Shown: piece after piece, positions 39,001 through 45,000 of the stretch
How the letters are laid out: each line of letters opens with the position of its first letter
Position numbering within the stretch: the stretch's first letter is position 1
Made by a program: the position numbers
Assembly: GCF_001677475.2 (NCBI RefSeq)
Contig: NZ_CP015229.1
Reading direction: 5' to 3' (one strand)
DNA length: 64,000 nucleotides
DNA from: Escherichia coli
GTDB lineage: Bacteria; Pseudomonadota; Gammaproteobacteria; Enterobacterales; Enterobacteriaceae

Positions 39001-42000
39001 TGTTGTCGAGATTATGGGTGCGTCGGTCGATTTCATCGTGACACGCGCTACAAGCCCATGAGCCGATCAGGTCGTCAGGCTTCATTCCCGTTCCGCAAAT
39101 TCCAGCCATCCGGTAATGTGCCAGAACTGTAGTTTCAGGATTGCCATTGCATACGCCGTAAATACGTACCTGGCATTCTCTGCCGCGCGCTTCTTTGCGT
39201 AGGTTAGCCATTTACCTTCCCTCGCAATTGAAGAATTGACTGAAGGTCTTTTTTAATAAATATGCGAGTGCGAATTGAGCAGTAGTTTTCCTTCATTCTG
39301 GCGTAGTAATAGTCCTTTCTTTGCTTAAGCTTGTTGGCATCCGCTGTCATCCAGTCTTTTACAGCAAACTTAATTAACCAGCGGTAGCAGAGATACCATT
39401 TCAGATAATCACTCATCGTCTTCTTCCTCGTACATTGAGCTATTCGGATCGCTCATCAGTTCTGCGCAGCAATCGGAGCACACGTGAACTTCCAGCACAT
39501 GCAGCTTCTGACCGCAGTTAGCGCACGTTAAAGCTCGCTCGACGCTTTCTTTCTGGTATTGAAGAGATTGGGATGGACTAAGCATGGCTTTCACCATTAA
39601 AAAGTCGCTTGTAAGCATCAATGTCTCGTTTTGCTTCACCAAGCTTTCGTCTTAATTCCATGTTTTCTGATTCAAGCTTTTCCATGTCTTGCTGGTATCG
39701 ATCGCGGTGTTCTTTCCATGCTTTTCGATACGCCTTCATGTATGTCGTATTGGCCTTTCTCTTTGCCTGACGAACTGCGTGGTGGTTTTTCACAAACCAG
39801 TCAGGGTCGTTAAATGCTGCTCTGGCGCATGTATACCAATAATTTGTTGCCTCCCTGTTTAGCCAATAAATACTGATAAATGGCAACTGGATAGACACCA
39901 TTTTTCGTTGAGACTCTTTCTCGCCAAACATGTGCCCTTTTTTGATGCTAAGGCCAAATCCAGGTTGAATTAAAAGCATTGTCATTTCCTCGCACGATGT
40001 CTTAGCCACCGGATATCCCACAGGTGAGCCGTGTAGTTGAAGGTTTTTACGTCAGATTCTTTTGGGATTGGCTTGCGTTTATTTCTGGAGCGTTTCGTTG
40101 GAAGGTATTTGCAGTTTTCACAGACTATATCGGTGATGCTTCGTCGCTTTCGTCTCATTCATACCTCCTGTCAGTAAATCTGATCCCCTGCTCCACAGCC
40201 CAGGAAGTTGTGTACTCAATCAGGCTTGCCATACGCTTCACGCTCATCTGCGCACTGCTTTCGCGGATATTGACGTATTCACCTTCAAGACCTGGCAAAA
40301 CATCAGCTTCCTGTTTTGTCGCCACGGCATGACCGCTGATTAACAAAACTTTCCACTGTTCTGGTTTTAGCCATCTGCCGCACCACTGAACCTGTCGGGA
40401 GATATCAGCGACCATCGCGTGAAATTTGGCATTTTGAGATAATTTTCTTGTTGGTTTGCGGATGTCTATGATGAATTTATCGGGGGCGGATTTTACTGCG
40501 TTTAATGCGTTAGCTCTGACGGATTCATTAATCAGATGATACCTTTGTCTTTCCATTAGATAGCGCCTCTTCTATGGTTTTTCCTCTCATTAGCCTTACT
40601 GTAATCGTTGAGTAGGGTATGCCTGTTTCTTCACTCCATTCTTTAATGGTCATTGTTTTCCCGTACGCTGTAAGATTTCGCGTTCTTCTGGTGTTGAGCT
40701 TTTGCTCTCGGTCAGTAGCCCATCGGCAATTCTCTTTGCAGTAATCACCATTGACATCAATACGATCAATGCTGCATCCGTCAGGCCTCTCTCCCATGTC
40801 TTCCAGGAAAAGATCAAATGAATTCCACCGTTCACAAACGCGAATCCCCCTCCCTCCATAGTTTTTGTATCCTGGTGTTTCGGGGTTATTGCATCTAGAT
40901 TTCATTTGGGCCCATGAAGAATATGCGCCCTTCCTTTTCCTGGGTTTTCCGTTATTTGCACATCTCAATGCTGCCGATTTCTTTACAAGACATCCGCATG
41001 ATTTAGTTCTACCTGTTGTCAGGGCCGAACGATAAATAAGTTTTTCCTTTCCACAATCACACCGACAAACCCATCGGCTTTCTCCAACTTTACCTCTTGG
41101 GTTTATATATGGATCTCCTTTTCGTAATACCACCAGGAGTCCGTATCTGTTGCCAATTTCAACCATATAGTAATTCCTTGCGCTTGTAGTCAGTAATGCG
41201 GATGGTGACTGGCTTGTCTTTATCGAGAGTTGTTGCAAGGATGGCGTTAATGGCGAATTGTTGCTGCTGCTTACTTCGGAGGAAGATAGTCTGGTTCATT
41301 ATTCCCTCTCATTGGATTTTCCCAACAAAAAAGGAGCCGAAGCTCCTTTAGTTTCAGAATTCAAATTGTCTTGCCCGTAGTTGCGCCAGCATGCTTCTGG
41401 CCCTATGCACCATATAGTTGGCGGGATCAAGTTTTGCTGCTTCGCGGAGCAATGTGTCGCGAGTCCGGTTGGTTATATGACGAGTCTCGTAGGCCAGATC
41501 AAACAGTTTCCCGTAGTAATCAGAGTTCAGTTCTCTCATGACGGGGTATAGCTGTTTACTGAGTTGTTGTGCTTTTTCCATCCAGAGTTGAACGTAGCAG
41601 AGCAGGATGATGTCTTCTGCTGTGAATTGCGGCTGAATATGAGGTTGTGGCGGTATAGCGCTTTTTTCAGCTTCACGGTCCAGAATATCCAATACCCAGC
41701 GACGAAACTCTTTTGCTATTGGAGTTCGAGCAAACATCGCTATTAGGTGAGCGCCGCGTAATGAGAAGATGCGAGTCTCTTGCTTGTCCCCTTTAGGATC
41801 GGTCAATTTGACCGAGGCTGTCATACCGTTTGTGAATTCATCTGCGTGACGGGCATAGATGCGTGTTACCGAGCTTTGATCTGCATATTGTAACGCGCTG
41901 GCTATTTGGGGGGCAGACAACCACAGTAGACCATCTCGTTGAACGGTCTGGAATTGAACATTGTGGAATACAAGTTGAGTGCTCATAGTTTTATGTCCTT

Positions 42001-45000
42001 TCGATTCGTTCAGATCACCCCGTGTTCAGCAGGGCGGTCGGGTACTTGAACACCGTCGAAAGTTCGGCCCGCATCCTTAGCCTTGCGGCTGTTTTTCGGT
42101 ATACGCGCTACCCGACCATATCTGAAAAATGGACATAAAAAATCCGCATGACTGACGGGCGCGGTTTCCGCTTTCGAAGGTGTGTTCAGCACCATGGAGC
42201 GGAATATATCCCCGCTAATGCGGATTTGTCAAATCTGGCCTTAAAACTCGAATTGTCTTGCCCGCAGGCTTTTCAGCATTGGTCTGGCCCGCTGGATAAC
42301 GAAACTTGACTGGTCAAGCCGTGCCGCCTCCCGCAGTAGCGCGTCTCTGTTCTTCGTCACCATGTAGATGGTTTCAAACGCAATGTCATACAGCTTGTTC
42401 GTGTATGAGGAGTTCAGCTCTTTCATAATGGGATACAGGTGTTTGCTGATGTTCTGGGCTTTTTCCATCCAGAGCTGCATGTAGCAAAGGAGGATGATTT
42501 CCTCGGCTGTGAATTGTGGCTGAATCTGCGACTGCTGTTCGGTTTGTATTGTTTTTCCCAGGCTGAAATAGCAGTCTTCCAGTTTTTCGAATACTTCCCA
42601 CGCTCGATCGGTTTCGAGCATTTTTGCATGACGGGCTGCGCCGCGTTCTGTCCAGAGGATGAGGTGCTTTGTACGCGGTGCAACTAAGTTACTTTGAGTA
42701 ACCTTGTTCTTAAATTCCCGCAATTCAGCCCCTTCCAATTTGAAGTAGTGCTTCCCGCAAACAAAACGCTCGGCATTGCGCGTATAGTTCACTTTGATGT
42801 TATTAGTTTCGGTGCCATAAAGTTGTGCCAAAAGCTCGGTGGTAATAACAAGAATCTGGTTATGGGTAATCGGGGAGATGGTTTCAACAGAGATTTGAGT
42901 TGTCATAATGACGCCCTCTAGTGGTTTCTAAACTATCACCACCGTAAGGTTCCAATCATCGGGTGGTGAGACGCACAGGGTTGGAACTACCGGGAAACCG
43001 ACCGGCGAGCTTTTCAGCTCCCCCATGCGCCCCACCATAATTCAGATGTGCGCGTGCATACGACAATAAAAAACACGCTCGCGGCGTGTGTTTGTCGCGG
43101 TCTCTATCCGGGGTTCCAATCCCGACGGCCAACTCGACCGTGCGAAGAATATAATCCCGGATAAGTAATTACGTCAACCCCAGCGGCAAATCGAATACTC
43201 CACCAGCGCCACCGCCAGTGCAATTCCTGCCGTTGTGAACGCCTCAGGCCAGGTCATCGTAAAACATCCTCCACGCTTATAAGTCCGTTTCGCTCCAGAT
43301 AGTCCATCGCTTTATCCGGTAATTTGCAGCCCGGTTTCGCTTTCCTCAGTTGCCAGGCTAACTGCTTTACCAGCATGGTTAACTCGTCGACCAGACGCTG
43401 ATATCCCACTGGTTTGTATTCATGCAATTTACCAGCTGGCTCTGCTACCAGCGATGCCAGTGCAATTTTGAATAACTCACCCTCTACCCGTGCCATCTCT
43501 GAATTAGGGTGGCATTTCGCAATCGCTATTTTTAATTTAGCTTCTTCGATTAATTGCTCTTTTGTTAATTCAGTCATTTTTCATTACTGCCCTTTCAGGC
43601 GGACTCCTGATGTTCTGAGGGTACAGAAATCCCTCCGGTTAAGGATTAAATTTTTAACAGTGCTAAATTTAATTATTCAGTTCTGGATTTTGTCGCTCTG
43701 CGCATCCGCGCTTTTGCGTTACGCTCAATCTGAATTAGCTTTTCTATATTTTTCCGCCTTTCCCGTTCCTCCTGACGCAATAGCCTTACATCATCTGCCA
43801 GTCTGGTTTCTCTTTTCGCCACAGAGAGCATCCAGTCAAACGGCTCCACAACTGCACCGCAGATTTTACAGCGGACCTGACGCTCTTTTTCGTCAACCCG
43901 GACAGAGTCGTGATGACAATATGGTCTTTCCGATGGCTCATAAAGAAAATTAACCTGATTACGTGGGTCATCCTCTTTTACCGGAAATAAAACAATATTA
44001 CTTAACTCATCTTCTGGTTTTATTTCCACGTTAGTCTCCTTTAATACGAATCCCTGCAACACGTAGTGCATGTTCTAAATCAGCAAGATAAAGCCAGCTA
44101 CCATTTTCTTTAGGTATCATGACATGACGCTCATCAGCATTTATCGGGTGTCCATATCGAAGTTCATAGCCAGCCGGTAGCTGGACTTCCCTTGCTTCCA
44201 GTTCTGCAATGCGCTTGTCTTTGGCTTCCAGTTCATCAAGAACCTTCTTTATGGCTGGTGAATGTGCCGTATAACTCGCAGCCGGACCAGCAAGCATTAT
44301 CCTGAGCTGTGCTTTCGCTTTTTCTATTCTCATCTATGCCATCACCTTGTTTCGCAACCAGACACAAACCGGACCATCTTCAGTATCATGAATGGAGCCA
44401 ATAAACCAGCCTTCGCCCTCTGGTCGTTCCGGTTCCCAGGTGGAAATATCGGGGTCATCTGCAACCGGATTTAAATAATCTTCATCCATGCTGCAAATAG
44501 TCCACTGAAGATTATTTGCCTTCATCCAGGCGCTAAACTCTTCCGTTGAAATATATTCCCGACCGTCACAGAACTTTTCATATTCTGGATGTGTCCAGCA
44601 GCCATATTCATCACGTTCTACTGGTATTTCTCTAATTTCATTCATTTCTGTTCTCCCATGTTTTCAGACTTTCACCGCAGAACGGGCAAAATGAAACCCG
44701 AACTGGTGATTTAGAAAATTCACCGGAACGCAACATCACTAAATCAGGGTCGCGAGTTAAATTCTCATTCCAGATTTTGTATATCAGCAGACCTTTTCGC
44801 GTCGTGTATTCAGCATCATGCTCAAGGGAGTTTGCCAGTGCCGTACACGGTTCTATCTTGTTGCCATAAACCTGGCATTTTGATTTACCCACTGGTCGCT
44901 TCCTTCACAAAAATAATCCAATGTGTTTTATCGTTCTTACCGGTGCGCTGGCTGATGATTGGTTTCGCGTCGGTTAGTGCCAATATCTGGCGGACAGGTA

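Follow-up and report, generated by a model that had tools for sequence, protein, structure and literature searches.

Two tandem antirepressor-like cassettes in an Escherichia coli prophage, probably gated by RNAs of the C4 and sRNA-Xcc1 families

We analyzed a 64,000-nt stretch of an Escherichia coli genome (contig NZ_CP015229.1 of RefSeq assembly GCF_001677475.2; hereafter the window), in which two adjacent antirepressor-like genes, A (42241..42906) and B (41354..41986), lie on the minus strand of a prophage. These genes probably belong to two autonomous tandem cassettes, with promoters of their own and a terminal terminator, each gated by an RNA in the manner of the C4 RNA of phage P1. The initial annotation had placed two adjacent genes at 41354-42906, separated by a structured noncoding gap of about 250 bp. 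Both open reading frames (ORFs) sit exactly there on the minus strand, and the gap (41987-42240, 254 bp) holds a structured RNA that exceeds its Rfam gathering score. That description was incomplete, since the gap is a full regulatory cassette and an equivalent one precedes gene A at 43185-42907, outside the interval then considered. What is new beyond the protein pair is that the gap would be one of two orthogonal RNA locks, and that the small RNA (sRNA) family to which its RNA belongs, sRNA-Xcc1 (hereafter Xcc1), appears to behave in a C4-like manner.

We infer that Xcc1-family RNAs work like the C4 immunity RNA of phage P1. By a modest degree we also favor a wider proposal, that the whole family is a second scaffold, or a far-diverged branch, of the leader-derived immunity RNAs typified by P1 C4 and P4 CI, spread throughout Proteobacteria and gating the next gene by a hypervariable two-site code, with dozens of orthogonal specificities and independent locks that can be stacked. 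The genes so gated would include antirepressors of the Bro-N, ORF6N, AntA, Rha, KilA-N, and P22_AR_N types, SymE toxins, and small proteins of no assigned family. A literature search returned no account that ties sRNA-Xcc1 to C4 or to control of an adjacent gene; Chen et al. 2011 (RNA Biol) might mention such control.

Anatomy and complementarity of the two cassettes

All features of the two cassettes are on the minus strand. In the proposed design, a cassette would run from a promoter through a leader with decoy sites (b1, a1) and a terminator, a three-way-junction RNA of ∼85–90 nt, and a 5′ untranslated region (UTR) of 41–52 nt to the antirepressor gene, and the UTR would repeat both sites (b2, a2) at or beside the Shine-Dalgarno sequence.

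Cassette 2 fills the gap. Its near-consensus promoter-like site (TTGACA-18-TATATT, 42203..42232, 11/12 consensus matches) begins 9 nt past the stop codon of gene A, and TTGACA and a −10-like hexamer are kept in homologous cassettes. The leader of ∼79 nt (42118..42196) carries site b1 (UGAACAC, 42188..42182) in a hairpin GGUG-CUGAACA-CACC (42193..42179), site a1 (UCGAAAG, 42177..42171), and a weak hairpin CCGC...GCGG followed by a U-run (42143..42135); it has no match to Rfam isrK or c4-a1b1 and shares only the layout of the isrK leader. The RNA that follows (42028..42117) matches Rfam sRNA-Xcc1 (RF02221) over the full length of the model (positions 1-87 of 87; 67.5 bits, gathering score 53), and a search of 42028-42117 with the C4 model (RF01695) gave no match at E ≤ 1, leaving sRNA-Xcc1 as the only assignment. 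Element a′ (CUUUCGA, 42062..42056) forms the loop of hairpin 2, element b′ (GUGUUCA, 42053..42047) is single-stranded before the outer stem, and the 3′ tail is GCCC. In the 41-nt UTR of gene B (41987..42027), site b2 is (CU)GAACAC (42029..42022) and site a2 (UCGAAAG, 42004..41998) overlaps the Shine-Dalgarno sequence AAGGA (42000..41996) by 3 nt. A strong intrinsic terminator (41330..41349), with an 8-bp stem AAAGGAGC-TTCG-GCTCCTTT and a T-run, starts 5 nt past the gene B stop codon and closes the two-cassette unit.

Cassette 1, upstream of gene A, follows the same order. A promoter-like site (TTGACG-18-TATATT, 43148..43177, 10/12 consensus matches) stands directly before a leader (43068..43141) that scores 54.9 bits against isrK (gathering score 50) and contains an intrinsic terminator (43089..43073 plus U-run), the two features that place it in the Hfq-binding isrK family (RF01394); there is also a weak c4-a1b1 match at 43154..43105. 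Site b1 (UUGGAAC, 43119..43113) lies in the hairpin CGGG-AUUGGAAC-CCCG (43124..43109), followed by site a1 (GAGACCG, 43104..43098). The RNA (42959..43042) is a C4 antisense RNA (RF01695, 71 bits, gathering score 45) with a stable predicted fold (minimum free energy −44.9 kcal/mol, z = −5.0), in which a′ (CGGUUUC, 43000..42994) is the loop of hairpin 2 and b′ (GUUCCAA, 42987..42981) the single strand between hairpin 2 and the outer stem. The 52-nt UTR of gene A (42907..42958) contains b2 (UUGGAAC, 42955..42949), a2 (GAAACC, 42928..42923), and the Shine-Dalgarno sequence GAGGG (42918..42914).

In both cassettes the leader carries a pair of sites complementary to a′ and b′, and the UTR carries this pair again; this is the C4-type arrangement of two exposed elements with complements upstream (a1/b1) and downstream (a2/b2). 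The Rfam consensus structures of C4 and Xcc1 are also built on the same plan: an outer stem encloses two hairpins, a single strand joins hairpin 2 to this stem, and the 3′ tail is rich in C. Elements a′ and b′ occupy equal positions in both structures; the Rfam C4 clan does not include sRNA-Xcc1. Cassette 2 thus appears to work like C4, yet is not a detectable C4 member. The recognition sequences differ between cassettes (GAAACC/UUGGAAC in cassette 1 vs. UCGAAAG/UGAACAC in cassette 2), with pairing scores of 12–14 nt for own pairings vs. 0–8 nt across cassettes. The complementarity score was 13 nt in the UTR of gene A (reached by 44 of 2000 shuffles) and likewise 13 nt in that of gene B (10 of 2000).

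Covariation of recognition elements with both flanks

In 78 of the 80 phage loci that encode the C-terminal domain common to A and B, a C4 or Xcc1 RNA lies just upstream of the gene, and the distance from RNA end to ATG is 38–42 nt for Xcc1 (one outlier, 29 nt) and 53–55 nt for C4. Across 14 Xcc1 classes from phage contigs, the RNAs match their own downstream flank far better than those of other classes (12.0 vs. 3.6 nt), and likewise upstream (14.0 vs. 6.9 nt). Seven C4 classes from phage contigs, which served as the positive control, gave comparable values (downstream: 13.9 vs. 6.8 nt; upstream: 13.3 vs. 7.6 nt). Furthermore, a scan of 100,044 species genomes with the conserved core pattern yielded 120 loci, with Xcc1 found in Pseudomonas, Xanthomonas, Lysobacter, Azospirillum, Haemophilus, Neisseria, Photorhabdus, and others. 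The 70 distinct Xcc1 RNAs from genomes again favored their own flanks (downstream: 10.9 vs. 4.8 nt; upstream: 14.9 vs. 8.2 nt), and none of 10,000 permutations reached the observed means (p < 1e-4). Cassette anatomy, complementarity, and covariation are direct observations.

These elements are hypervariable; the 14 Xcc1 classes contain 12 different a′ loops, each matched both upstream and downstream (e.g., CUUGUAU/AUACAAG, CUACUUG/CAAGUAG, CUAUCGC/GCGAUAG, and CUUGUAAG/CUUACAAG; the loop in the window is CUUUCGA). Within 13 distinct multi-cassette arrays, the mean score was 11.8 for own pairings vs. 3.5 for pairings with other cassettes of the array, so that the cassettes of an array are mutually orthogonal. 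The genes directly after the genome Xcc1 RNAs encode Bro-N, P22_AR_N + P22_AR_C, Rha + ORF6C, KilA-N, or SymE-toxin proteins, along with several small proteins that have no Pfam match.

The leader is conserved as a motif in ∼100 leaders: a 4-bp stem with b1 in a loop of 7–9 nt, then a1, then a hairpin and U-run. Stems of the b1 hairpin vary in a compensatory manner (GGUG/CACC, GGAG/CUCC, GAGG/CCUC), and the terminator hairpin has variants as well (CCGC/GCGG, CCAAC/GUUGG, CCCACC/GGUGGG). A crude stem parser, which under-counted terminators owing to its offset limits, found the b1 hairpin in 90 of 101 leaders, and RNAalifold returned no structure from a gappy MAFFT alignment of ∼100 leaders. In most of 59 distinct Xcc1 RNAs, a CC is conserved after the outer stem, as at the 3′ end of tRNA, a hint that would fit processing by RNase P.

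The gap RNA matches the family known from Xanthomonas campestris from end to end. There sRNA-Xcc1 is a discrete 88-nt RNA (PMC2996969), and published accounts treat it as trans-acting and virulence-linked with many predicted targets (PMC2996969, PMC12189769), not as a regulator of the adjacent gene. Should these descriptions apply to the window, the gap RNA would be a host-directed sRNA and its adjacency to an antirepressor gene incidental. We find this scarcely credible, because in nearly all unique phage instances the position is fixed 38–42 nt before the start codon, because both exposed elements covary with both flanks across the 14 + 70 variants, and because host targets could not track such hypervariable loops.

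Several reports place family members in similar surroundings. Xcc1 members occur in integron cassettes upstream of symE on the same strand (bioRxiv 10.1101/2025.06.18.660453), and in APSE phages a BRO gene is preceded by c4 and isrK and an ORF6N gene by Xcc1, an arrangement left uninterpreted (PMC7313666). In Xylella fastidiosa Temecula1, five sRNA-Xcc1 homologues, reported as vesicle-borne sRNAs, lie ∼385 nt apart in a genomic island at 1,313,466-1,315,082 (PMC12189769); this spacing resembles that of the tandem cassette arrays analyzed here.

Arrays of three cassettes (C4, Xcc1, Xcc1) were observed at two loci (L003, 538-2815; L002, 3155-5432), and the annotation of the E. coli copy marks its first antirepressor gene as truncated; cassette arrays grow and decay one cassette at a time. 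'Orphan' Xcc1 RNAs, which have leader and target sites and no long downstream ORF, occur at L014:1519-1603, L016, L019, L020, L071:1509, and L023:643, and could supply antisense RNA, and hence immunity, without an antirepressor. Group II intron domains (Rfam group-II-D1D4-3, 135 bits) were observed directly downstream of an antirepressor gene in a further related phage contig (L013, 2934-3220 and 4592-4664).

Proposed gating, related systems, and cis control

We propose a mechanism by analogy with P1/P7 c4, P4 CI, and Gifsy-1 IsrK/STnc1160, from which RNA processing, action in trans, translational block, and protein function are all extrapolated. The structured RNA would be excised from read-through transcripts that it shares with its target, and its a′ and b′ would pair with a2/b2 and block ribosome binding, so that no antirepressor is made in the lysogen. 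Leader RNA, with its a1/b1 sites, would compete for the same two elements, and an excess of leader or a burst of transcription would consequently release antirepressor translation. Given their different recognition sequences, cassettes 1 and 2 would be gated independently.

A close parallel is immI of P1/P7 (c4, icd, ant1/ant2), as reported by Citron and Schuster in 1990 and in PMC12197685. There, RNA and target share a transcript on which the RNA comes first, the target is an antirepressor, and a′/b′ pair with a1/b1 upstream and with a2/b2 at the ribosome-binding site; divergence of these elements accounts for heteroimmunity. The window shows the same order, with complementary sites before an antirepressor-like gene, and the RNA of cassette 1 is itself recognized by the C4 model. 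The window differs in having no icd-like gene between RNA and ant, in lying in a lambdoid nin region rather than in a P1-type plasmid prophage, in the domain make-up of its antirepressors, in having two cassettes in series, and in that the RNA of cassette 2 is undetected by the C4 model. P22 Ant, from immI with arc, mnt, and sar, has the P22_AR_C domain in common with A and B, and an antisense RNA (sar) likewise represses ant in P22; however, sar is a truly overlapping antisense transcript whereas the RNAs here are upstream on the same strand, and the P22 protein has a P22_AR_N head (P22_AR_N + P22_AR_C) instead of ORF6N or Bro-N.

The isrK-orf45(STnc1160)-anrP region of Salmonella Gifsy-1 has the same order as cassette 1, with isrK and a terminator, a C4-type RNA, and an antirepressor gene; cassette 2 differs from it in having the layout without an isrK sequence match. 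When IsrK is provided in trans in Gifsy-1, it pairs with the downstream region from which the processed RNA STnc1160 (∼80 nt) derives, and anrP translation thereby increases >100-fold; the authors of that study liken the system to P4 CI/seqA/seqC (PMC4825925).

Several observations count against our proposal. The complementarity within the window is only moderately unusual, with 10–122 of 2000 dinucleotide shuffles per flank reaching the observed values, so that the case rests on the cross-locus covariation. In cassette 1, the a2 site ends 4 nt short of the Shine-Dalgarno sequence, without overlap. In cassette 2, the leader terminator is weak, was missed by the terminator scan, and is deduced from conservation, and the Xcc1 fold by itself is unexceptional (z = −1.7). 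About 20 Xanthomonadaceae Xcc1 RNAs, including those before symE-type genes, match leader sites only and not the UTR, and the Xcc1 family may consequently not work uniformly. On the protein side, the P22_AR_C matches of A and B are modest (∼31 bits, compared with 106.6 bits for P22 Ant), whole-protein identity to P22 Ant in a three-way alignment is 22 and 19%, the tails of A and B have just scattered conserved residues in common with P22 Ant, and the putative antirepressor activity comes from family annotation and the precedent of Phi24B and P22. Finally, the IsrK study invokes a structural switch in cis and a translated upstream ORF rather than a free antisense RNA (PMC4825925).

This last point leads to control purely in cis, by alternative folds of one long leader-mRNA like structures A and B of IsrK, with no free antisense RNA acting in trans and no function in immunity specificity, which we regard as unlikely but a live alternative. 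The leader in the window could pair along the 3′ half of the RNA with hardly a break (duplex of −32 to −33 kcal/mol), such a duplex matches helix b-I of the IsrK study, and that study found a dependence on orf45 translation (PMC4825925). However, discrete processed RNAs of similar size are documented, STnc1160 at ∼80 nt and sRNA-Xcc1 at 88 nt. P1 C4 is reportedly 77 nt long (Citron and Schuster 1990). The ORFs that overlap the window RNAs of cassettes 1 and 2 end 50 and 24 nt, respectively, short of the ant start codons. The overlapping stop-start coupling of orf45 is thus absent, in cassette 1 a further difference from Gifsy-1. Moreover, diverse recognition codes and orthogonality within arrays are what selection on specificity in trans would produce.

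Pairing of a separate RNA with its own flanks, the mechanism that we prefer, may take another form in the leader-only Xanthomonadaceae loci, among them L095, L103, L105, L108, L109, L139, L151, L153, and L167. In these loci the RNAs covary with the leader sites a1 and b1, the downstream UTR is constant and noncomplementary, and the next genes encode proteins of ∼88 aa, or SymE in L104. Such a layout suggests a different mode, either termination control as in P4 or a sponge. In P4 immunity (CI RNA; seqA, seqB, seqC), a short leader-processed RNA likewise pairs with sites upstream and downstream of itself, but P4 CI terminates transcription of the replication genes early instead of blocking antirepressor translation, and it may be the better model for these leader-only RNAs.

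Protein modules, prophage setting, and significance

The view of A and B as tandem antirepressor-like paralogs, with one C-terminal domain in common and different N-terminal modules, agrees with both Pfam and PHROGs. Gene A encodes 221 aa with an ORF6N head (75 bits, 5.8e-21, gathering score 27.8) and gene B encodes 210 aa with a Bro-N head (44 bits, 3.6e-11, gathering score 25.6), which narrows the earlier 'Bro-N/KilA-N-like' label of one head to Bro-N and leaves the ORF6N-like label of the other as it was. Both carry a C-terminal domain of the P22_AR_C type (30.9 bits in A, 30.8 bits in B, gathering score 22.4), neither has a P22_AR_N head by Pfam, and both match PHROGs labeled 'anti-repressor Ant' (A: phrog_377, 1.2e-79; B: phrog_245, 1.5e-41). 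The N-terminal modules are putatively DNA-binding by family annotation, and the predicted action of both proteins is to bind CI-type repressors and inactivate them; a CI-like repressor is encoded in the same prophage. A knockout of ant in Phi24B affects induction (PMC3064807). The microRNA-size RNA '24B_1', said to control d_ant in Phi24B, was set aside as a candidate since it maps to the lom region and not to the nin region. A PDB sequence search gave no usable match for either protein.

By BLASTP, A and B are 42% identical across 192 aa (E = 1e-47), and the similarity is concentrated in the final 94 residues (IQPQFTAE to LRARQFEF), which align without gaps and are identical at 62 of 94 positions. 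The C-termini had been called nearly identical over ∼100 aa; the common domain stands, at 94 aa, but at 66% identity the wording was overstated, and the value is well above the 40% or so that had been set as the lower limit for a shared domain. The heads alone give zero BLASTP alignment, and hhalign with shallow alignments of ORF6N-, Bro-N-, and AntA-type heads returned probabilities ≤2%, in agreement with the unrelated N-termini previously claimed. One PHROG profile, phrog_2127, matches both heads at ∼1e-24, so a remote relationship of the heads is possible; apart from that profile, homology of the two N-termini is unsupported by BLASTP and hhalign.

Adjacency, a common strand, and the identical ends LRARQFEF would fit a recent in situ tandem duplication followed by replacement of one N-terminus, with one copy redundant or decaying and the gap a leftover. 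This we consider very improbable. The common part is 65% identical in DNA and only 39% identical at third codon positions, and the tails are therefore old alleles under purifying selection, not the product of a recent or in situ duplication. A direct alignment of the two regulatory regions found no real similarity beyond the promoter hexamers, so cassettes 1 and 2 are not recent copies of each other either. Both reading frames are intact, and other N-termini accompany each allele of the C-terminal domain elsewhere. Moreover, phage phiSTEC1589-Stx1c and 16 of 5426 complete E. coli genomes keep the two-gene arrangement at ∼95% identity; there the two annotations read "ORF6N domain-containing protein" and "BRO family protein", or "antirepressor" and "Rha".

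Related phages combine the same modules (N-terminal, C-terminal, and RNA) in other ways. Among 56 distinct proteins from 80 phage contigs, the C-terminal domain stands behind AntA (27), ORF6N (23), and Bro-N (6) heads, which bears out the proposed domain shuffle, and all three head types are paired with both distinguishable alleles of the C-terminal domain (YMQLW... and YVQLW...). A word-indexed search of public proteins with the C-terminal domain gave 20 proteins, mostly partial and from E. coli, which is not a survey and suffices to show AntA and ORF6N fusions. ORF6N heads are found behind both C4 and Xcc1 RNAs in phage loci, so RNA type and protein head have been swapped independently. Domain shuffling among Bro-N/KilA-N/ORF6N/Rha/AntA phage regulators was reportedly described by Iyer et al. 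in 2002. As in that shuffling, a single C-terminal module is joined here to alternative heads (ORF6N, Bro-N, AntA); the difference is that exchange extends to a third, noncoding module, the regulatory RNA. The protein observation alone, a common tail with differing heads, is ordinary for such phage regulators.

The window contains a lambdoid prophage of the Shiga toxin (Stx) type that belongs to the POCJ13 / 75-02 family and runs along the minus strand, with A and B in the nin region. The integrase lies near 58.7 kb, followed by the CI-like repressor, Cro, CII, replication genes, and genes A and B; after gene B come NinB (40556..40155), Q (38474..37995), three tRNAs, and a nanS-p-type esterase. 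At 40528-41299 (minus), ninB seems to have been interrupted or duplicated. A fragment of 46 aa that resembles the N-terminus of NinB (41299..41159) comes first, then an ORF of 236 aa (41238..40528, minus), which has no Pfam match and resembles a free-standing gene of the homing-endonuclease type, and finally the intact NinB; in E. coli relatives gene B directly adjoins ninB. Between the tRNAs (36518-36764) and the esterase gene (35371..33323), at the position of stxAB in Stx phages, there is a 143-aa TerB-domain ORF (35914-36345, minus; Pfam TerB 1.4e-16) and no ORFs of stx size, so the prophage appears to belong to the Stx-phage family while lacking stx. The TerB-domain gene is followed closely by a strong Rfam STnc100 match (35475-35687, minus; 181.9 bits), and this RNA family is also present in a related locus (L034).

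Antirepressors decide prophage awakening, including that of Stx-type phages of pathogenic E. coli, and through them one phage can induce another or override it. Should every antirepressor be locked by a sequence-coded RNA of its own, this code would determine which co-resident or incoming phages can engage in cross-talk. As a C4-like regulator of neighboring genes, Xcc1 would give a testable function to a widely annotated and poorly understood RNA family, would explain its tandem arrays and its link to symE and antirepressor genes, and would supply a natural set of orthogonal two-site antisense switches. If the proposal holds for the whole family, published views of Xcc1 homologues as virulence or cross-kingdom sRNAs would need to be revisited.

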